This document shows positions 7,356 through 37,219 of a stretch of DNA of 64,000 nt, piece after piece. The notes beneath the pieces are model-generated. The model had not been told where the DNA came from. It saw only the letters and a program-made list of their open reading frames with translations, and made no database searches. Location: the NCBI RefSeq assembly GCF_013122565.1, contig NZ_CP053258.1, one strand, 5' to 3'. The first letter of the stretch is position 1; each line of letters begins with the position of its first letter. This DNA comes from Escherichia coli (GTDB lineage: Bacteria; Pseudomonadota; Gammaproteobacteria; Enterobacterales; Enterobacteriaceae). A program made the position numbers and the translations under genes.

Positions 7356-8297
7356 ATGGCGCACTCACACTCACACACTTCCCCACACCTGCCAGAAGAT
7401 AATAATGCTCGTCGCTTGTTGTATGCTTTCGGCGTGACTGCCGGGTTTATGCTGGTAGAAGTCGTTGGTGGTTTTCTTTCTGGTTCTCTGGCATTGCTGG
7501 CCGATGCGGGTCATATGTTGACCGATACTGCTGCCCTGCTTTTTGCCCTACTCGCCGTGCAATTTTCACGTCGTCCTCCCACCATTCGCCACACTTTCGG
7601 TTGGCTAAGATTGACCACGCTCGCGGCGTTTGTGAATGCCATAGCCCTGGTGGTGATTACTATTTTGATTGTCTGGGAGGCGATAGAACGCTTCCGCACA
7701 CCGCGTCCGGTCGAGGGCGGCATGATGATGGCAATTGCCGTGGCTGGGTTGCTGGCAAATATACTTTCTTTCTGGTTACTTCATCACGGCAGCGAAGAGA
7801 AAAACCTCAACGTACGAGCAGCGGCACTGCATGTGCTCGGGGACCTGCTGGGTTCGGTTGGGGCTATTATTGCCGCGTTGATTATTATCTGGACCGGCTG
7901 GACACCTGCTGACCCTATTCTCTCGATACTGGTGTCGCTTCTGGTTCTGCGTAGCGCGTGGCGACTGTTGAAAGATAGCGTGAATGAATTACTTGAAGGT
8001 GCACCGGTATCGCTGGATATCGCTGAACTGAAGCGTCGTATGTGCCGGGAAATCCCGGAAGTCCGCAATGTGCACCATGTACATGTATGGATGGTAGGCG
8101 AGAAGCCGGTGATGACGCTGCATGTGCAGGTGATCCCGCCACACGATCACGATGCCTTGTTGGATCAGATCCAACACTACCTGATGGATCACTATCAGAT
8201 TGAGCACGCCACCATTCAGATGGAATATCAACCTTGTCATGGGCCAGACTGCCACCTGAATGAAGGGGTGTCTGGCCATTCACATCATCACCATTAA
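7356..8297 (+). CDS. zitB: cation diffusion facilitator zinc exporter
   Basis: 313 aa ORF with His-rich N- and C-termini ([11 protein letters not shown] ... GHSHHHH) and CDF transmembrane core. Confidence 0.9.
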
Positions 8298-11535: not shown

Positions 11536-12327
11536 TTACATCGCGTTCAGACGTTTTTGCGCCTGTTTAGCGCCATCAGTACCAGGGTATTTACTGATAA
11601 CCTGCTGGTATACGGCTTTCGCTTTTGCGGTGTCACCTTTGTCCTGCATGATGACGCCGACTTTAAACATCGCATCTGCAGCCTTTGGTGACTTCGGATA
11701 GTTTTTCACTACCGAAGCAAAATAGTACGCCGCATCATCTTTTTTACCCTTGTTGTAGTTTAACTGACCCAGCCAATAATTGGCGTTTGGCAGGTAAGTT
11801 GAATCAGGGTAATTTTTGATGAAATTCTGAAATGCCACCATTGCGTCATCCTGGCGGGATTTATCCTGCACCAGCGCAATAGCTGCATTGTAATCCGTGT
11901 TTGCATCGCCGCTTTTCACCGGCGCGCCAGCATTCGCAGTACCAGCATCAGCTGTCGGCGTCGTTGATGCCGCCGCACCGCTTTGATCACCGCTGGTTGA
12001 TTGCGCCGCTGCACCACCGCTGCTGAGGCTGTCGATCTGCAACAGGATCTGCTTTTGCCGCTCCACGACCTGATTCAGTTGATACTGATTTTCCTGAATC
12101 TGACCACGCAGGGAATCAATATCGGATTGATTATCAGAGAGTTGTTGCTGGAGTTGGGTTAAAAGCTGGCTGTGAGCATTAGAAATACGCTCAAGTTGAG
12201 TGACGCGGTCTTCGACCGAGCCTGAGCCGACACTACTGATTGGTGCCTGAGCAAAAGCGGCCCAGGGGGCCGCTATACCAACCAGTAACGACAGACTCAA
12301 TAGTTGATGTCTGAAGTTACTGCTCAT
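11536..12327 (-). CDS. cpoB: cell division coordinator CpoB (YbgF), periplasmic TPR protein
   Basis: 263 aa ORF with a signal peptide, Gln-rich coiled-coil N-domain and C-terminal TPR-like repeats; last gene of the tol-pal cluster. Confidence 0.9.
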   Translation of the reverse strand: MSSNFRHQLLSLSLLVGIAAPWAAFAQAPISSVGSGSVEDRVTQLERISNAHSQLLTQLQQQLSDNQSDIDSLRGQIQENQYQLNQVVERQKQILLQIDSLSSGGAAAQSTSGDQSGAAASTTPTADAGTANAGAPVKSGDANTDYNAAIALVQDKSRQDDAMVAFQNFIKNYPDSTYLPNANYWLGQLNYNKGKKDDAAYYFASVVKNYPKSPKAADAMFKVGVIMQDKGDTAKAKAVYQQVISKYPGTDGAKQAQKRLNAM

Positions 12328-21287: not shown

Positions 21288-22232
21288 ATGAGTCCTGATA
21301 ATATCGGTTCGGCTGTCAATCGCTTCTCAGGTTGGCCATCTAATGATCCTCTAAAAACAGATAAAGAATCAACGACATCACCCGTGACAGTGCAGGTAAT
21401 AAAGATGATTGCCGCCATCCTTGACCCACATCGGATAGTCGTTGGAATCGATACACTTTATACAACGCAGCGCGAAACATTTACCTCAGAGAGTCAACAG
21501 CTCATTGAATCAGCATTGCAAACACTTCATGTGATGAATTTAAATAACCTGGAAACAAATCGCGATGAAGAAGGTCACTATCTGGCTTTTGAATATAACG
21601 TTGACACCTCTGACAGAATAACCGTTTCTGCTTACAATGAAAAAAATCCTGGCTGCTATGGCCAATGTCTTTTAATACAGGATGACGAAACAGACTTATT
21701 CAACCTGATAAAAATTAAAATTTTTGAAGCCAGGCATAATTATGTCGCTCAATTGATGAGCGATCCAGAATTTATGTTCAAATTCAGTTATAGCGCTCAA
21801 CAAAATAGATTAGAACCTCATCTTCTGGTTCCCGCTTATTTCCCTCTAAAAACAAACGAACCGGTTACGCAAGAGGATGTACTGTTACTTTATCGTTTCT
21901 TTAAAATGAATGATGATTTTAACAAATTAACATCAGATGAATACATGAGTATCCTGACACCTCTGATGAAGTGTGAGCGTAGCGTCCACGACAACAACAG
22001 GTATGTGACGGGCAAAGATACCCTTCTTCTGGACTATCCTCCTTCTGGTAACCAGATACATTTCCATGTTTTCCCTGACGAATCAGCAACACTAGTCCTT
22101 TATTTTTCAAACAATGACCTTGAATATTTCGTCTTTGAAAGAGATATTCCGAGCCAGTATCGCTTTTTCAAAATGTTTACCAATCTGGCACTGGTTATAG
22201 ATCAGTTAACCGAAGCCCATAAAATACTTTAA
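21288..22232 (+). CDS. hypothetical protein, 314 aa, AT-rich codon usage, no recognisable motif
   Basis: ATG at 21288 with a GAGG RBS 8 nt upstream; Ser/Thr/Pro-rich N-terminus; no family recognised by eye. Confidence 0.55.
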   Translation: MSPDNIGSAVNRFSGWPSNDPLKTDKESTTSPVTVQVIKMIAAILDPHRIVVGIDTLYTTQRETFTSESQQLIESALQTLHVMNLNNLETNRDEEGHYLAFEYNVDTSDRITVSAYNEKNPGCYGQCLLIQDDETDLFNLIKIKIFEARHNYVAQLMSDPEFMFKFSYSAQQNRLEPHLLVPAYFPLKTNEPVTQEDVLLLYRFFKMNDDFNKLTSDEYMSILTPLMKCERSVHDNNRYVTGKDTLLLDYPPSGNQIHFHVFPDESATLVLYFSNNDLEYFVFERDIPSQYRFFKMFTNLALVIDQLTEAHKIL

Positions 22233-22312
22233 TTTTCTATATATCCCTATGGCAAATATTGCTAAACAATGCCTGGGGATTAATTTTTATTACTCACGGA
22301 AAGATTTAAATA

Positions 22313-22735
22313 ATGATATCATCTCAGATCTCTTTCAGTACTCTTCCTGTCAATGCAACATACGCTTCAGAGACAACAGTTGACACACAAAAATTCTCTG
22401 ACATCCTCTACTCAGCGGGGTGTTCCCTAAAGGATATGGCTTATCTGAGCAGATGTCTGGCATCAATACACCCGACTATCGCCAAAAACATTTATGAAAC
22501 AGAAAATCTCAGCGATCAAAAATTACTGCATATTGATTGCCGTAGTACAAATGACATCAAGATAAATATCTTTTTTGGTCAGCAACGAGAAGGATTAATT
22601 GAAATTAGTTCTGACACAGTTATTTTTTCGATACTGTCTTCATTGATTGACTCCGCCATTTCTAAATTTCAACATCAAAACCCGGTTAACGGTTCAGTTA
22701 ATCCTGAACTATTGTATGAGGATTATACTGATTAA
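22313..22735 (+). CDS. hypothetical small acidic protein, 140 aa
   Basis: Co-directional ORF 80 bp after the 314-aa ORF, same AT-rich composition; weak RBS, so the start is uncertain. Confidence 0.45.
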   Translation: MISSQISFSTLPVNATYASETTVDTQKFSDILYSAGCSLKDMAYLSRCLASIHPTIAKNIYETENLSDQKLLHIDCRSTNDIKINIFFGQQREGLIEISSDTVIFSILSSLIDSAISKFQHQNPVNGSVNPELLYEDYTD

Positions 22736-27827: not shown

Positions 27828-29198
27828 ATGGCTCGTTCTTTTAAAGTCTTATCGCCAACGGCAATCCTCGGGTATGGATTCCCGGAAGAGAGCTTCCGCA
27901 AAGCGATGGCAGAATCGCCCGATCTGATCGCCGTTGATGCCGGCTCTTCCGATCCAGGCCCCCACTACCTCGGGGCAGGCAAACCGTTTACCGATCGCGC
28001 AGGGGTCAAGCGCGATCTGCGCTATATGATCACCGCAGGCGTGCAAAATAATATACCGGTGGTGATCGGAACGGCTGGCGGTTCTGGTGCCGCACCACAC
28101 CTGGAGTGGTGCCGAGAAATAATTCATGAGATTGCCCGGGAAGAGCACCTCTCGTTCTCGATGGCGTTGATCCCGGCAGACGTTGACAAAGCCATCGTCC
28201 ACCAGGCGCTGGATAACGGCAAAATCACGGCGCTGGATTTTGTCCCGCCGTTAACCCACGACGCGATTGACGAAAGTACGTATATCGTTGCGCAAATGGG
28301 CATCGAACCCTTCCAGCGGGCTCTGAAAGAAGGCGCGCAAGTGGTGCTGGGCGGGCGCGCTTACGACCCGGCCTGCTTTGCTGCGCTCCCGATCATGCAA
28401 GGCTTTGATGAAGGTCTGGCGCTGCATTGTGGGAAAATCCTTGAGTGCGCAGCAATCGCCGCAACGCCCGGCTCAGGCTCTGACTGTGCGATGGGCATCA
28501 TTGATGACAACGGCTTTACGCTGAAGACATTTAATCCGAAGCGTAAATTTACCGAAACGTCAGCAGCTGCACACACACTGTATGAAAAATCCGATCCCTA
28601 CTTCCTGCCAGGACCTGGCGGCGTGTTGAACCTGAAAGGCTGCACATTTAAAGCAGTCAATGACGGCGAAGTCTACGTCAGCGGTTCTAAGCATGAAGAA
28701 ACGCCGTATGCCCTGAAACTGGAAGGTGCACGACGGGTGGGCTTCCGCTGTCTGACCATCGCCGGAACGCGCGACCCGATCATGATCGCCGGGATCGATA
28801 AAATCATCGATGAAGTCAAAATCAGCGTTTCGCGTAACCTGTCGCTTGACGATGACAGCATTCGCATCAATTTCCACCTGTACGGCAAAAACGGGGTGAT
28901 GGGCGACCATGAACCGATGCAAACTACCGGGCATGAGCTGGGGATTGTCCTTGATGTAGTTGCACCGACCCAGGAAATTGCCAACAGCGTTTGCTCGCTG
29001 GTGCGCTCTACCATGCTGCACTACGGCTATGAAAACCGCATCGCTACCGCAGGCAACCTGGCGTTCCCGTTCTCCCCTTCTGATATCCAGGGCGGGCCGG
29101 TATACGAATTTTCCATATATCACCTGATTGAAGCCAACGACGCTCTGCGTTTTGATTTCCATATTGAACAGGTGACGCCAGAAGGAGTTCAGGTATGA
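27828..29198 (+). CDS. uncharacterised protein, 456 aa (tentatively AtuA-like/DUF1446-type; family not verified)
   Basis: ATG at 27828 with AAGGA 7 nt upstream, 3 bp after the methylaspartase stop; Gly-rich, no cofactor motif recognised by eye. Confidence 0.6.
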   Translation: MARSFKVLSPTAILGYGFPEESFRKAMAESPDLIAVDAGSSDPGPHYLGAGKPFTDRAGVKRDLRYMITAGVQNNIPVVIGTAGGSGAAPHLEWCREIIHEIAREEHLSFSMALIPADVDKAIVHQALDNGKITALDFVPPLTHDAIDESTYIVAQMGIEPFQRALKEGAQVVLGGRAYDPACFAALPIMQGFDEGLALHCGKILECAAIAATPGSGSDCAMGIIDDNGFTLKTFNPKRKFTETSAAAHTLYEKSDPYFLPGPGGVLNLKGCTFKAVNDGEVYVSGSKHEETPYALKLEGARRVGFRCLTIAGTRDPIMIAGIDKIIDEVKISVSRNLSLDDDSIRINFHLYGKNGVMGDHEPMQTTGHELGIVLDVVAPTQEIANSVCSLVRSTMLHYGYENRIATAGNLAFPFSPSDIQGGPVYEFSIYHLIEANDALRFDFHIEQVTPEGVQV

Positions 29199-32722: not shown

Positions 32723-33325
32723 ATGGAAGCGCGAATTTCAACTGAACGGCATGTGCAGCGCCAGCAGAAATTGAAGGAACAGGTCGATACGCGCGTCGCG
32801 GCGGCGATAGAGAAAAAAGGGATCTTGATTGTTTTCACCGGCAATGGCAAAGGGAAATCCACTGCCGCGTTTGGTACGGTGACGCGCGCGGTGGGTCATG
32901 GCAAAACGGTGGGGGTTGCGCAGTACATCAAGGGGCAATGGGACAACGGCGAATACAACCTTCTCCAGCCGCTCGGGGTTGAGTTTCATATTATGGGAAC
33001 CGGTTTTACCTGGGAGACACAGAACCGGCAAGCGGATATCGACGCGGCGAAAGAGGTCTGGTCGGAAAGCAAACGGATGCTGGCTGACAAGCGTTACGAC
33101 TTAGTGGTGCTTGATGAGCTGACCTATATGCTGGCTTACCATTATCTGGATACCGAAGAAGTGATCGCTTCTCTGCAAAACCGCCCGGCACAACAAAGTG
33201 TCATTGTCACCGGACGCGGTTGCCACAGTCAGATATTAAAAATGGCGGATACGGTCAGCGAAATCCGCCCCGTCAAACATGCTTTTGATAACGGCATTCA
33301 GGCCCAGCCGGGTATCGACTGGTAA
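32723..33325 (+). CDS. cob(I)alamin adenosyltransferase, BtuR/CobA-family paralogue
   Basis: 200 aa with P-loop GNGKGKSTAAFG and full-length similarity to BtuR as remembered; AAGGA RBS; last gene of the operon. Confidence 0.85.
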   Translation: MEARISTERHVQRQQKLKEQVDTRVAAAIEKKGILIVFTGNGKGKSTAAFGTVTRAVGHGKTVGVAQYIKGQWDNGEYNLLQPLGVEFHIMGTGFTWETQNRQADIDAAKEVWSESKRMLADKRYDLVVLDELTYMLAYHYLDTEEVIASLQNRPAQQSVIVTGRGCHSQILKMADTVSEIRPVKHAFDNGIQAQPGIDW

Positions 33326-33328
33326 TAA

Positions 33329-33356
33329 CTGCGCCTGGCATCCCGCCAGGCGCAGG
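33329..33356. terminator. bidirectional terminator between the B12-operon end and the convergent LysR gene
   Basis: Perfect 11-bp inverted repeat ctgcgcctggc / gccaggcgcag around a 5-nt loop, followed by gtttt. Confidence 0.7.
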
Positions 33357-33358
33357 TT

Positions 33359-34264
33359 TTACATCTCCTGCGGTACGACCGATTTCGCCAGCAACCATTC
33401 ACGAAATTGCTGCAAGTGCGGCGAGTCAGACTTCTCTTCCTGCCACGTCATAATAAAACGATTACCGGTACGAATAGGCACATCACAGGGAATCACCATA
33501 TCGCCACTATCCAAATCATGTTGAATAGCGAACCGTGGTAACAGCGCCACGCCGAGATTAGAGCGCACGGCGGCAATCAACATTGAAAGCAAATCGAAAC
33601 GTGGCCCGTTGTTGACCAGCGGACTGCTAACGCCAGATAAAGCAAACCACTCTTCCCAGCCAGTAATACGGGTGCTTTGATGCAGAAGTGGTAACTCAGT
33701 AAGCAGTTCTGCCACTGACAGTTTTTGATCGGACATTGCAAGCAAACTGCCGCTGCATACCGGCAAAATCTCCTCTTCAAAGAGATATTCTACTTCCGCC
33801 CAGGGCGCGCAAAAATTTTCGCGCATAATGACAGCATCGTACTCCCGATTAAGAAAATCGCCGTTATTAGCTAAAGAATGAATATTAACAATAATATCGG
33901 GATGTAACTTTGTGAATTCATGTAAATTTGGGATTAACCAGTGGGTACTAAAAGTAGGATTAACGGCAAGTTCAATAACCTGAACCGTAGGCTGCCAGGT
34001 CATAATGGTATTGGTATCGCGTTCCAGCTTATTTAATGTTTCTTTTACTATCCCCAGGTAATACTTCCCTGCATCATTAAGAAAAATACGTTTTTTAGAG
34101 TGTGAAAATAACGGAGTACGTAAAAATTCCTCCAGCGCACTTACTTGTCTGAATACTGCACTTTGGGTTAACGCTAACTCCTCTGCCGCTCTGGTATAAC
34201 TTTCATGACGTGCGACGACCTCAAAAGTCACCAGCAGTTCCGTTTTAGGTATTTTTCCTCGCAT
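33359..34264 (-). CDS. LysR-family transcriptional regulator
   Basis: ORF 33359..34294 trimmed to the Met after a ggaagg RBS (MRGKIPKTELLVTFEVVARHESYTRAAEELALTQSAVFRQVSALEE is a typical LysR HTH); about 301 aa. Confidence 0.85.
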   Translation of the reverse strand: MRGKIPKTELLVTFEVVARHESYTRAAEELALTQSAVFRQVSALEEFLRTPLFSHSKKRIFLNDAGKYYLGIVKETLNKLERDTNTIMTWQPTVQVIELAVNPTFSTHWLIPNLHEFTKLHPDIIVNIHSLANNGDFLNREYDAVIMRENFCAPWAEVEYLFEEEILPVCSGSLLAMSDQKLSVAELLTELPLLHQSTRITGWEEWFALSGVSSPLVNNGPRFDLLSMLIAAVRSNLGVALLPRFAIQHDLDSGDMVIPCDVPIRTGNRFIMTWQEEKSDSPHLQQFREWLLAKSVVPQEM

Positions 34265-34854
34265 AATGCCTTCCGTGAAAAAATAACAATTCAAAAAATT
34301 ATTTTATAAAAAACAGTAGCGCTAATGAATATCATAATTCAAATAAACAAACCAGTCAGCTATATGTCTAACCAGGAAAATAAAGTGACAATAATCCTAA
34401 AACAGGAATTTCACCTCAGTTATCCGCATGCAATGCTTTAAAGCCATTATTGCAAGAATATTATTCATATACATGAATATACTCTAAATAAGTCGAGTTG
34501 GAGGAAGGGAACAAATAATGAATTTCCAGAAGCTTACATAAGTAAGTGACCTGGGTGAGCGAACATCGATGCAGCACATGCAACTTGAATTATGACAAGT
34601 ATACAATGATAAATTTAGATACCCTATGTTATATATTATCTATGTCCGGTTAAATTGAATGAGTCATGGCCTTCAAAGACATCGCAAAAGATAATTTCTC
34701 TTTAACAATAAGCCAGATTTACCACTTGTAAAAATTGCTATCGCCACATACACTACGCGCGTTTTCTTTCCCTTTTGCTGGCTGCTGACCGGAAAGACAA
34801 AATTACCCTCGCAATACAGGGGGTTGTTTAACGTCTATATTTCAGGACAGCGTT

Positions 34855-36252
34855 ATGCATCATCTTTCAAGGCTTGATAAAGCCTTTCTGCGCAAAGGGA
34901 TCCAACTTTCCCGCGCCAACAATATTGTTTCATTATCTCGTCCATCAGGTGTCAGTGCCCGCGTACTGCTGCCAGACGAACTGCCGCTGGAAGAAAAAGC
35001 AGTAACACAACTGCTTGATTTTGCAGAAGTGAAGCTACCAGACCACCCAGGTTATGTACGCCAGACGTGTGCGACGCCAGATTTTCATCCCGGCAATGGC
35101 GTCCCCGTTGGCGCGGTGGTAGCCTCAACGCCGGATTTAGTCATTCCCGCCGCCATCGGCACCGATATTTCTTGTGGCATGCGGCTGCTGACGACCGGAA
35201 TAACACTTGAGCAAGCCGAAGCGCATAAAGACGTCATCACTCAGCGGTTAACGCAAGTGTTACTGCAAAATGAGCGCGATGTTCCGTTATCTGCACGAGC
35301 GTTCACCGCGCTTTTTGATGGCGGGCCGGCAGATTGCATGTCGGCCTTGCCATCAGCAGGTCTCTGGACACGCACGAATATCCCCCGAATGGTACAAGAG
35401 ATTGACCGCTGCATTGGGCTGAACGAGCATAAAAGTCATTCGCGTTATGCCCCACCCGCCCTGCTGGCAACGGACCGCGCATTACTCCGCGACCCTTGTC
35501 TGGGTACGCCGGGTTCAGGTAATCATTTTATTGAACTTCAGGTAGTTGATAGCGTGATCGATCGCCATGTAGCCTGGCAACAAGGGCTGAAAACAGGCGA
35601 TATCGTGGTGATGATCCATAGTGGATCGCGAGATGTCGGCTTTTACGTCGGACGACGCTGGACGGACCGTGCCCGCGCAGACTGGCCCGCTGGGCATAAA
35701 CATCCACAAAGCGGGTTATATGGTCTGGCTGGTGGACTGGCGGAGGAATATCTACAAGCGATGGGAATGGCGGCGCGTTACGCATGGTTAAATCGCGTGA
35801 CCATTACGGAAATGGTGCGCGTATGTTTTGCCGATTTATTCCATCAGGATGAATCACATCTGGTGGTGGATGTGCCGCATAACATCATCCTTCGCGAGCA
35901 TGAGATGAATATTCATCGCAAAGGCGCAACACCGGCACGTGCGGGCGATCTGGCGTTAATCCCCGGTTCAATGGGCGATTATTCGTGGCTTGCGGTAGGT
36001 TGCGGCAACCCGGAGTGGTTGTGGTCATGCAGTCACGGAGCAGGACGCAGCCAGCGTCGGCAGGCCATGCGCGCACACGCGACTGAAGAGTCAACGCTGC
36101 CGTGGCAATGCGTAACACTGCGTGAAGAACGGCGTATTGAGGAAGCGCCAGCTGCTTATAAAGATATTGGTCCGGTTATCGAAGCCCAACAAGAAGCTGG
36201 ATTAATTCAGCCAGCGGTCAGATTTCGACCGTGGTTAACGTTTAAGGCATAA
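34855..36252 (+). CDS. RtcB-family RNA ligase paralogue (465 aa, N-terminally extended)
   Basis: Motifs typical of RtcB: PDFHPGNG, GTDISCGM (cf. GVDIGCGM), and HGAGR near the C-terminus; divergent from the LysR gene across 590 bp. Confidence 0.75.
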   Translation: MHHLSRLDKAFLRKGIQLSRANNIVSLSRPSGVSARVLLPDELPLEEKAVTQLLDFAEVKLPDHPGYVRQTCATPDFHPGNGVPVGAVVASTPDLVIPAAIGTDISCGMRLLTTGITLEQAEAHKDVITQRLTQVLLQNERDVPLSARAFTALFDGGPADCMSALPSAGLWTRTNIPRMVQEIDRCIGLNEHKSHSRYAPPALLATDRALLRDPCLGTPGSGNHFIELQVVDSVIDRHVAWQQGLKTGDIVVMIHSGSRDVGFYVGRRWTDRARADWPAGHKHPQSGLYGLAGGLAEEYLQAMGMAARYAWLNRVTITEMVRVCFADLFHQDESHLVVDVPHNIILREHEMNIHRKGATPARAGDLALIPGSMGDYSWLAVGCGNPEWLWSCSHGAGRSQRRQAMRAHATEESTLPWQCVTLREERRIEEAPAAYKDIGPVIEAQQEAGLIQPAVRFRPWLTFKA

Positions 36253-36274
36253 AAAAGGCCATCATACGATGGCC
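36251..36274 (-). terminator. rho-independent terminator of the sdh-suc transcript / SdhX
   Basis: Hairpin ggccatc-gtat-gatggcc followed on the minus strand by a U-run (plus-strand aaaaaa at 36251-36256); begins immediately after the RtcB-like stop codon. Confidence 0.75.
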
Positions 36275-36349
36275 AACCATGTCGAAACCGACAGCCCTTC
36301 GCCATTCCTGTAGAGGGAAGCGGCGAGGGCTATTTCTTATTACAGATAT
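36251..36349 (-). ncRNA. sdhX: putative SdhX (RybD) sRNA from the sucD 3' UTR
   Basis: About 100 nt between the sucD stop (36350) and the terminator; contains ...caggaauggcgaagggcugucgguuucgacaugguuggccaucguaugauggccuuuu, which matches my recollection of the SdhX 3' region. Confidence 0.5.
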
Positions 36350-37219
36350 TTATTTCAGAACAGTTTTCAGTGCTTCACCGATATCCGCCAGGCTGCGAAC
36401 GGTTTTCACGCCTGCGGCTTCCAGAGCCGCGAATTTCTCATCCGCAGTCCCTTTCCCACCGGCAATGATGGCACCTGCGTGGCCCATACGTTTGCCTTTC
36501 GGCGCAGTCACACCAGCGATGTAACCTACAACTGGCTTGGTAACGTGCTCTTTGATGTACGCTGCTGCTTCTTCTTCAGCGCTACCGCCGATCTCACCGA
36601 TCATCACGATCGCTTCGGTCTGCGGATCTTTTTCGAACATTTCGAGGATGTCGATAAAGTTAGAGCCAGGGATCGGGTCACCGCCGATACCAACACAGGT
36701 CGACTGACCGAAACCGTAATCCGTGGTCTGTTTAACCGCTTCATAGGTCAGTGTACCGGAACGGGAAACGATACCCACTTTACCCGGTTTGTGAATGTGA
36801 CCAGGCTGGATACCGATTTTGCATTCACCTGGGGTGATAACGCCCGGGCAGTTCGGGCCGATCATACGAACGCCGGCTTCATCCAGTTTCACTTTCACAG
36901 TCAGCATATCCAGCGTCGGGATGCCTTCAGTGATGGTGATAATCAGTTTGATGCCTGCGTCGATGGCTTCCAGAATGGAGTCTTTGCAGAACGGTGCTGG
37001 TACGTAGATAACAGAAGCGGTAGCGCCAGTGGCAGCAACGGCTTCACGCACGGTGTTGAACACCGGCAGGCCGAGGTGGGTGGTGCCGCCTTTACCTGGG
37101 GTTACGCCGCCAACCATTTTAGTGCCGTATGCAATAGCCTGTTCTGAGTGGAAAGTCCCCTGGCTACCGGTAAAACCCTGGCAGATAACCTTGGTGTTTT
37201 TATCAATTAAAATGGACAT
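36350..37219 (-). CDS. sucD: succinyl-CoA synthetase alpha subunit
   Basis: 289 aa, [45 protein letters not shown]. Confidence 0.95.

Follow-up and report, generated by a model that had tools for sequence, protein, structure and literature searches.

A third RtcB branch in Escherichia coli is preceded by a conserved leader RNA and appears independent of its LysR-type neighbor

A gene for a stand-alone RtcB-family RNA ligase lies divergent from a LysR-family regulator gene in a 64-kb window of the Escherichia coli contig NZ_CP053258.1 (the window being the whole stretch of 64,000 nt that was analyzed, which is the cydA-sucABCD region of the Escherichia chromosome). We consider it likely that this RtcB forms an independent, self-contained module of promoter, leader, and ligase gene at the variable cydA-sucD hotspot, with the leader controlling expression in cis. 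Comparison of related loci points to a conserved, gene-specific, covarying structured leader RNA, apparently undescribed, which accompanies this RtcB clade in organisms as distant as E. coli and cyanobacteria. The LysR protein, judged by the genomes in which it is found, appears to serve a methylaspartate island and not RtcB.

Bacterial RtcB biology has so far been framed by 2 systems, RtcBA under the control of RtcR and the RtcB2-PrfH pair. The locus in the window represents a third widespread RtcB lineage with a leader of its own, absent from Rfam. This leader, with about 92 nt and an invariant 7-nt segment, provides a handle on the signal by which a stand-alone RNA ligase is switched on and, through that signal, on the target of its repair. 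Assigning the LysR neighbor to the methylaspartate island also removes the tempting lead of a LysR-controlled ligase.

Conservation and specificity of the leader RNA

The heptamer GCTGCTG is found within 220 nt 5' of RtcB at 78 of 85 loci, mostly 65-81 nt before the start codon, compared with 7% of background 220-nt windows. Among E. coli alleles the leader is 98.9% identical while synonymous divergence (dS) in the coding sequence is 0.14-0.21, making the leader far more conserved than synonymous sites. It remains recognizable, with insertions and deletions of 1-2 nt, in relatives whose proteins are 82% and 68% identical. These small indels are those of a non-coding sequence and rule out both a leader peptide and an open reading frame (ORF) that begins farther upstream.

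A covariance model (R1) seeded with leaders from Gilliamella, Snodgrassella, Xenorhabdus, and Pectobacterium only recovered the leader at the correct place in the window and in Burkholderia, Comamonas, Variovorax, and 2 cyanobacteria. The second-generation model (R2) produced 57 matches at E <= 1 in 1.53 Mb searched on both strands. All but one stray lie directly 5' of a clade RtcB on the coding strand (56 matches), and they include genera that were not in the seed, namely Janthinobacterium, Cupriavidus, Andreprevotia, P. aeruginosa, additional Massilia species, and additional cyanobacteria. In the same 1.53 Mb, R2 matched neither rtcB1, rtcB2, or LysR-only loci nor any other part of the window. 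A weak R1 match at window positions 12085-12147 was gone with R2 and was taken as chance.

Searches against Rfam 15 gave no match at the window leader (E up to 1) or at 8 other members (gathering score), and Burkholderia (E up to 10) gave chance matches only. In the literature that was searched, we found no account of an RtcB leader or of the GCUGCUG motif.

Structure and covariation of the leader RNA

Two hairpins are predicted in the window leader (Table 1), P1, which carries GCUGCUG in its loop, and the longer P2. P2 overlaps the 3' strand of P1 by 3 nt, so that the 2 pairings partly compete. Among the 46 dereplicated leaders, 45 have a hairpin around the motif, and its stem takes 36 distinct sequences; the flanks of P1 read CCUUCC/GGAAGG in Burkholderia, UUUCCUG/CAGGAAA in Gilliamella, and GAGAC/GUCUC in cyanobacteria. 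The P2 region of the window folds at -14.7 kcal/mol (z -2.9).

Support for these helices comes from alignment-free tests on the 46 dereplicated leaders, in which matched pairing partners were compared with partners taken from other genera over 5000 permutations. Matched P1 flanks pair at -8.05 kcal/mol, compared with -4.82 kcal/mol for partners from other genera, and none of the 5000 permutations reached the matched mean. The same was true of the P2 halves, at -16.1 versus -8.6 kcal/mol (0 of 5000; mean z -2.16). For the duplex between the P1 loop and the ribosome-binding site (RBS), the matched mean in 33 proteobacteria was -14.2 kcal/mol, as against -9.9 kcal/mol with a shuffled RBS and -12.4 kcal/mol with the RBS of other genera (0 of 5000). 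Relative to composition-matched shuffles, the P1 energy is modest (mean z -1.4) because the flanks are pyrimidine-rich on one side and purine-rich on the other; P1 of the window is not individually significant.

In the R2 alignment, 84% of cells pair, a share that falls to 61% in shuffles and to 46-59% with slid partners. Double changes occur at all 12 modeled pairs (7 in P1 and 5 in the outer helix of P2), and the covariation score is 0.48 versus 0.16 for shuffles. Column-based counting of the pseudoknot was dropped, since the register of the GCUGCUG repeat that is used varies among genera.

When folded without constraints, the window leader has a minimum-energy structure of -29.2 kcal/mol (z -2.7) in which the GCUGGCUGCUGA segment at 34776-34788 pairs with the stretch from the Shine-Dalgarno (SD) sequence to the AUG, around P2. 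Seven further proteobacterial leaders, likewise folded without constraints, adopt this arrangement (z between -2.0 and -5.0). In these closed folds, the GGAAGG-like purine-rich strand pairs downstream and extends P2, and in P1 the same strand pairs upstream. This alternative use of one strand is the reason for proposing 2 competing leader states. Many beta-proteobacteria have the exact complement CAGCAGC at the start codon and no visible SD sequence.

The RBS-side partner in several beta-proteobacteria (L016, L040, L013, and L048) is CCAGCAGCC, located directly before the AUG. We take this sequence to be identical to a universally conserved strand of the 16S rRNA 530 loop (the 515F primer site), which would make GCUGCUG complementary to that rRNA segment; a 7-mer matches a 1.5-kb rRNA by chance in about 1 of 10 cases. 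In Janthinobacterium (L011, L012, and L033; leader at about 7909-7994), the leader model points to a GTG start near 7992, and the upstream ATG falls inside P2.

Proposed regulation by the leader

From these predicted pairings, we infer that the leader acts by RBS occlusion. In a closed, off state, the GCUGCUG segment would pair with the SD/AUG region around P2 and hide the RBS, and in the alternative state P1 would form and display GCUGCUG in its loop. The invariance of the motif even in cyanobacteria, without RBS pairing, suggests recognition by a trans factor. The ever-present partners of the leader are either RtcB or universal machinery, the ribosome being one example.

Several points weigh against a self-contained module governed in this way. 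The isolated loop-RBS duplex of the window is weak, at -10.6 kcal/mol with 67 of 200 shuffles as good, and loop-RBS pairing was not detected in 13 cyanobacterial leaders (-7.0 versus -6.8 kcal/mol), in which the GCUGCUGAAC loop is kept. Since cyanobacteria keep this loop without RBS pairing, RBS occlusion is not the full reason for the invariance of the motif. The pair counts given above were taken from model-fitted (Infernal) alignments, which are biased towards structure, a bias from which the alignment-free tests are free. RNAalifold applied to a sequence-only MAFFT alignment of 28 leaders returned no structure; it was replaced by the alignment-free and Infernal analyses because loop lengths vary and stems shift by 1-2 columns between genera. 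The top promoter hexamer pair in the window scores 8 of 12 and is equaled by 53 of 200 shuffles, and so is not significant alone. The census of RtcB neighbors described below took one genome per species and covers the best 80 of at least 590 relatives, in 45 genera. Within E. coli, RtcB has been lost repeatedly and is therefore dispensable, and the LysR protein may act on RtcB at long range across the 590 bp between the 2 genes.

The same features could be read as those of a leader that is mainly a transcription attenuator or a protein-binding operator, as in autogenous repression by RtcB through a substrate-like hairpin. P2 is in many lineages a GC-rich hairpin followed by a U-run and thus terminator-like, RtcB is the sole constant companion of the leader, and a trans factor would account for the unchanged motif in cyanobacteria whose RBS pairing is not detectable. 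A terminator scan, however, called no terminator on the + strand of the window leader, and the covariation between loop and RBS is significant in proteobacteria. We regard this alternative as unlikely.

A hypothetical elaboration of RBS occlusion, which we hold to be very unlikely, is that the leader is at once a sensor of RNA damage and a substrate of its own RtcB. An endoribonuclease or ribotoxin would cut the exposed GCUGCUG, leaving 2',3'-cyclic-phosphate and 5'-OH ends; MqsR-type toxins cut at GCU, and GCUGCUG has 2 such sites. The cut would break the anti-RBS pairing and turn on RtcB translation, while the flanking helices would hold the nick like that of a broken anticodon loop, allowing RtcB to reseal it and so shut off its own synthesis. 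The evidence behind this scheme reaches only to the conservation, structure, and RBS pairing of the leader and to the invariance of an exposed segment in it. If true, the scheme would constitute a protein-free, self-resetting feedback loop of RNA repair, a bacterial analog of HAC1/XBP1 cleavage-ligation control, and would explain how the lineage can do without RtcR and why GCUGCUG stays unchanged between cyanobacteria and E. coli.

Family, active site, and fold of the RtcB protein

RtcB-like motifs were recognized in the 465-residue protein in the preliminary description of this locus, and they prove to be the catalytic ones: PDFHPG contains D76 and H78, GTDISCGM contains D104 and C107, and HGAGR contains H394 and R398. 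Pfam RtcB (PF01139) aligns with residues 63-464 over model positions 7-425 of 426 (E 1.9e-95), and close relatives are labeled "RtcB family protein" in RefSeq. We aligned the protein with E. coli RtcB1 (L093), an intact PrfH-linked RtcB2 (L096), and the solved P. horikoshii and T. thermophilus enzymes. All 14 mapped active-site positions are conserved (D76, H78, D104, C107, N223, H224, E227, H255, R259, H342, N343, K356, H394, and R398), and all 14 are invariant across 17 clade members.

A loss of metal-binding residues, as expected of an inactive homolog, is not seen. The two-metal ligands Asp95/Cys98/His203/His234/His329 of P. horikoshii correspond to D104/C107/H224/H255/H342, all of which are kept. 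The guanylylated His and the GTP and phosphate contacts (P. horikoshii His404/Asn202/Glu206/Arg408/Lys351/Asp65/His67) correspond to H394/N223/E227/R398/K356/D76/H78. The roles of these residues are presumably those established by the Shuman and Raines laboratories. RtcB1 residues D75/C78/N167/H168/H185/R189/H281/H337/R341 align to D104/C107/N223/H224/H255/R259/H342/H394/R398, and we take these RtcB1 residues to be those found essential in published mutagenesis, an agreement that supports the register of the alignment.

The protein is 29.7% identical to RtcB1, 30.4% to RtcB2, 32.4% to the P. horikoshii enzyme, and 31.5% to that of T. thermophilus, and RtcB1 and RtcB2 are themselves 28% identical. 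Identities of about 30% to all of these, matched by the distance between RtcB1 and RtcB2, argue for a third deep RtcB branch and not a moved copy of the canonical rtcB. The description of the gene as a stand-alone paralog also holds, as its usual partners are missing and tblastn found no homolog of RtcA, of the sigma54 activator RtcR, or of PrfH in the 64-kb window. The annotation of the related locus L001 likewise lists neither rtcA nor RtcR. Every score with the curated RtcB models of NCBIfam fell below the cut-off (164.7 versus 271.8 for TIGR03073).

An AlphaFold2 model of the protein has a predicted template-modeling score of 0.85. Its 16 significant matches in the PDB are all RtcB structures, with template-modeling (TM) scores of 0.68-0.79, and the next match has E > 1. 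The N-terminal 58 or so residues are folded in this model, and R6, L7, and A10 are invariant in the clade. An extended N-terminus had been noted earlier, and this is correct relative to E. coli RtcB1, which is 28 residues shorter up to the first conserved Asp. The distance is only 11 residues longer than in P. horikoshii RtcB, however, and there is no added domain; the extension is a trait of the clade, near the archaeal and human form.

The conserved residues and the modeled fold indicate that the protein is most likely a GTP/Mn2+-dependent ligase, sealing 3'-phosphate or 2',3'-cyclic-phosphate termini with 5'-OH termini via a His394-GMP intermediate. No family among the PADLOC anti-phage defense models matched the locus at E <= 0.01.

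Distribution, neighbors, and selection of the RtcB clade

More than 2,000 database proteins match this RtcB at E <= 1e-20. The best relatives outside Escherichia have 465-470 residues and 60-68% identity (Pseudomonas, Burkholderia, Variovorax, Ralstonia, Chitinimonas, and others), and the census reaches cyanobacteria at about 40% identity and myxobacteria at 30-43%. The clade is widespread in beta- and gamma-proteobacteria and cyanobacteria, including E. coli, P. aeruginosa, Burkholderia, and bee-gut symbionts. In P. aeruginosa (L005), the clade RtcB follows nuoN, a position that we take to be that of PA2651 in PAO1. We found no paper characterizing the clade, including under the names RtcB3 and PA2651.

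Conservation of the neighborhood, a check proposed in the preliminary description, was examined by all-against-all clustering of ORFs within 6 kb on each side of RtcB. None of the resulting families is broadly shared among the 80 loci: the largest clusters other than RtcB are shadow ORFs inside RtcB itself, and the rest are generic families. The gene context of RtcB differed in each case inspected. A LysR-type gene detectable with the window LysR lies within 6 kb at 6 of the 80 loci, and a divergent one within 1 kb at a single locus (Chitinimonas, 38 bits), where it is not an ortholog. Since no neighbor family is broadly shared, the solitary state of this RtcB is a trait of the lineage.

The RtcB alleles of Escherichia are under purifying selection, with a ratio of nonsynonymous to synonymous divergence (dN/dS) of 0.12-0.27 among E. 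coli alleles and of 0.07-0.08 against an 86%-identical relative. dS among the Escherichia alleles is 0.06-0.21 (window versus L001, L008, L009, and L010), while the flanking sucD is about 98% identical. This contrast suggests that the polymorphism is old or that alleles were imported repeatedly at the cydA-sucD hotspot.

These values bear on whether RtcB in Escherichia is a decaying passenger without current function. Among 5,426 complete E. coli genomes, only 289 have an intact RtcB of this clade and about 400 have nothing but remnants, consisting of its final 44 bp; a truncated form of 398 residues (P0004) also exists. Decay without function is nevertheless highly improbable given the dN/dS values, the full-length frames, the retention of every catalytic residue, and the near-identity (98.9%) of the leader among alleles.

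The LysR-type regulator and the methylaspartate island

A LysR gene divergent from its neighbor is the classic layout of such a regulator and its target, and the preliminary description favored a LysR-RtcB pair, with regulation of the methylaspartate operon and an independent ligase as the fallback. The divergent arrangement across an AT-rich spacer of 590 bp was confirmed (35% GC), and it is the fallback that the comparative data bear out. The LysR protein scores 221 bits against the GcvA subfamily model of NCBIfam, under the cut-off of 288. Its gene is found in 1,119 of the complete E. coli genomes and methylaspartate ammonia-lyase in 1,122, so that LysR is about 4 times as frequent as the clade RtcB and nearly one-for-one with the methylaspartate island. 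The LysR-RtcB block in the layout of the window is present in 137 genomes. Canonical rtcB1 is present in 4,850 (89%, versus about 5% for the clade RtcB).

The 2 genes also occur apart. O157:H7-type genomes have an intact LysR gene with RtcB reduced to remnants of 57 bp and 44 bp (L002 15284-15833, corresponding to window positions 35979-36035 and 36209-36252). In some E. coli loci, RtcB is divergent from hutU with LysR not adjacent, and in another context it comes after a deleted island followed by mngBAR. E. coli of sequence type 648 (ST648) has both genes with the 8-kb hut operon between them, an arrangement shared by the 86%-identical relative outside E. coli. LysR orthologs with 63-86% identity in Salmonella, Enterobacter, and Yersinia are attached to a cluster of cobO, fumarase, and methylaspartate mutase, without RtcB, and in Yersinia the LysR ortholog and the mutase operon diverge in the layout that is classic for LysR regulators.

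The co-occurrence counts, the ortholog loci without RtcB, and the contexts separated by hut argue that LysR regulates the methylaspartate (glutamate to mesaconate) island and is independent of RtcB. The adjacency of LysR and RtcB reflects gain or loss of the hut operon at the cydA-sucD recombination hotspot, the genes being adjacent only in genomes without the hut operon. LysR-type regulators often act on divergent neighbors, and in the window and the 137 genomes of like layout the 2 genes are indeed divergent. Even so, induction of the ligase through LysR in response to a metabolite or stress is barely credible, as LysR tracks the island and has orthologs in 3 genera that lack RtcB there, ST648 and the 86%-identical relative have hut between the genes, the only divergent LysR among the 80 clade loci is a non-ortholog, and of the patchwork spacer, interrupted by an ERIC-like repeat, only some 130 bp are linked to RtcB.

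In the island itself, the AtuA-family gene at 27828-29198 and the next small ORF downstream (DUF4387) are kept in E. coli and in the corresponding methylaspartate clusters from Salmonella, Enterobacter, and Yersinia (L097, L098, and L099).

Layout of the locus

The top match of a 3.6-kb query (33000-36600) in complete genomes is E. coli 2017-02-2CC, at 97.3%. The spacer from the LysR ATG to the RtcB ATG spans 34265-34854 and has 35% GC as against 54% in the RtcB gene; a mechanically called LysR ORF extends to a TTG start (33359-34294, - strand). Features of the locus are collected in Table 1.

Table 1. Positions of genes, leader RNA parts, and spacer elements in the window.
Feature	Position	Strand	Details
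LysR-family (GcvA-like) regulator gene	33359-34264	-	annotated ATG at 34264, as in RefSeq relatives; 301 residues
Short patch conserved 5' of LysR orthologs	34321-34360		85% identity over 40 bp (2 ortholog loci, L100 and L101)
ERIC/IRU-like dispersed intergenic repeat, mid-spacer	34470-34610		genome-wide copy counts
Putative sigma70-type RtcB promoter	34726-34754	+	-35 TTGTAA, 17-nt spacer, -10 TACACT
Predicted conserved structured 5' leader, whole element to AUG	34762-34857	+	about 92 nt; covariance model R2, 52.4 bits, E 8e-11
Predicted P1 hairpin	34765-34797	+	UCUUUCC (34765-34771) pairs with GGAAAGA (34791-34797); 19-nt loop
Invariant GCUGCUG in P1 loop	34781-34787	+
Predicted P2 long hairpin	34795-34836	+	AGAC.AAAA.ACCCUC ... 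GGGGGU.UGUU ... GUCU
Ribosome-binding region	34843-34857	+	CAGGACAGC (34843-34851), SD AGGA at 34844-34847, AUG; predicted pairing with GCUGGCUGCUGA
RtcB-family RNA ligase gene	34855-36252	+	465 residues; Pfam RtcB full length
Terminator-like hairpin, sucD strand	36257-36274	-	5 nt past RtcB stop; GGCCATCGTATGATGGCC then TTTTTT (consensus scan)

The conserved patch 5' of LysR is probably the LysR promoter/operator side of the spacer. The mid-spacer repeat occurs in 5,425 of the 5,426 E. coli genomes, with 2-10 copies each (median 6) and mainly 80-90% identity, and a copy in the opposite orientation lies between sdhB and sucA in Salmonella. The repeat is labeled ERIC/IRU-like from its resemblance to the ERIC consensus. 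When RtcB alleles in the LysR and hut contexts are compared, clear homology begins at 34747, a -35-like CTTGT about 20 bp farther 5' matches more weakly, and some 130 bp of upstream DNA are the only part of the spacer that moves with RtcB. The spacer thus reads as a composite patchwork with no compact bidirectional control region. The whole spacer as control DNA shared by LysR and RtcB was ruled out by this patchwork make-up and by the ERIC-like repeat.

Other members of the clade point to a sigma70-type promoter directly 5' of the RtcB leader. In proteobacterial clade members, -10 elements of the TAnAnT type end a median of 22 nt 5' of GCUGCUG, several of them with a TTGACA or TTTACA -35 element, and the putative -10 element of the window falls within the segment common to all Escherichia alleles. 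A pattern search found no sigma54-like -24/-12 site in the spacer. The element at the leader lies directly 3' of this putative promoter and inverted repeats can be protein-binding palindromes, but we give almost no weight to a DNA operator for a transcription factor, since the helix sequences are wholly different between lineages yet complementary, the long-range pairing extends to the start codon, the element lies at a fixed distance from the AUG, and the frequent G-U and U-G pairs (such as 10 cells at pair 39-180 and 8 at pair 44-177), which would be A-C mismatches on the other strand, favor an RNA on the coding strand.

Downstream of RtcB, the terminator-like hairpin may end both convergent transcripts, that of RtcB and that of the sucD side. 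The 3' untranslated region (UTR) of sucD at this hairpin is presumably the site at which the small RNA SdhX is produced. The persistent 44-bp RtcB remnant abuts the hairpin and may be kept as part of the 3' UTR or terminator. At the cydA edge of the island, 2 hypothetical genes of low GC content (36-40%; 21288-22735) are conserved together with the island in E. coli genomes (L001, L002, and L102).

Comparison with known systems

The ribosome-repair module RtcB2-PrfH of E. coli ATCC 25922 (PMC9304027, PMC9223846) likewise involves an accessory RtcB paralog of E. coli with an intact active site. The window RtcB scores below the threshold of the release_rtcB models and differs from RtcB2 in sequence (30.4% identity), in length (465 versus 379 residues), and in having no adjacent prfH. 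RtcB2 is located between yafP and pepD, as opposed to cydA-sucD for the window RtcB, and its locus has no match to the leader model. A RefSeq note on an RtcB2 pseudogene (L095 2513-2719) mentions drug-inducible mexXY expression, which we take to reflect P. aeruginosa ArmZ (PA5471)/PA5470, an RtcB2-PrfH module and thus of a branch other than that of the window RtcB.

E. coli RtcB1, encoded in rtcBA under the sigma54 activator RtcR, belongs to the same Pfam family and shares the fold and active-site residues, and the chemistry is presumably the same. The window RtcB is 29.7% identical to it and 57 residues longer, is not accompanied by rtcA, RtcR, or a sigma54 promoter, and has a leader whose model finds no match at the rtcB1 locus. 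Closest in length and N-terminal architecture are the archaeal, Thermus, and human RtcB proteins (PDB 4dwq, 2epg, and 8odo), with TM scores of 0.70-0.79 and 31-32% identity to the archaeal and Thermus enzymes. Those enzymes have archease or complex partners and serve tRNA splicing or the unfolded-protein response, whereas no gene for such a partner is conserved next to RtcB in the clade.

Multiple RtcB paralogs within one bacterium, Myxococcus xanthus, reportedly differ in activity (Maughan and Shuman 2015, cited in PMC9304027). The census contains myxobacterial relatives of the window RtcB at 30-43% identity. As for divergent pairs of a LysR regulator and its target, the window LysR is a genuine GcvA-like member of its type, but its adjacency to RtcB is not conserved and the spacer is long and composite.

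The proposed RtcB leader resembles RBS-sequestering leaders, riboswitch platforms, and thrS-type operators in being a structured 5' UTR that can pair in alternative ways, with the SD/AUG region predicted to be occluded in one of them, and in its linkage to one gene across phyla. It differs from riboswitches in having no match in Rfam 15 and in that its sole invariant sequence is the 7-nt GCUGCUG, in place of a ligand-binding core.

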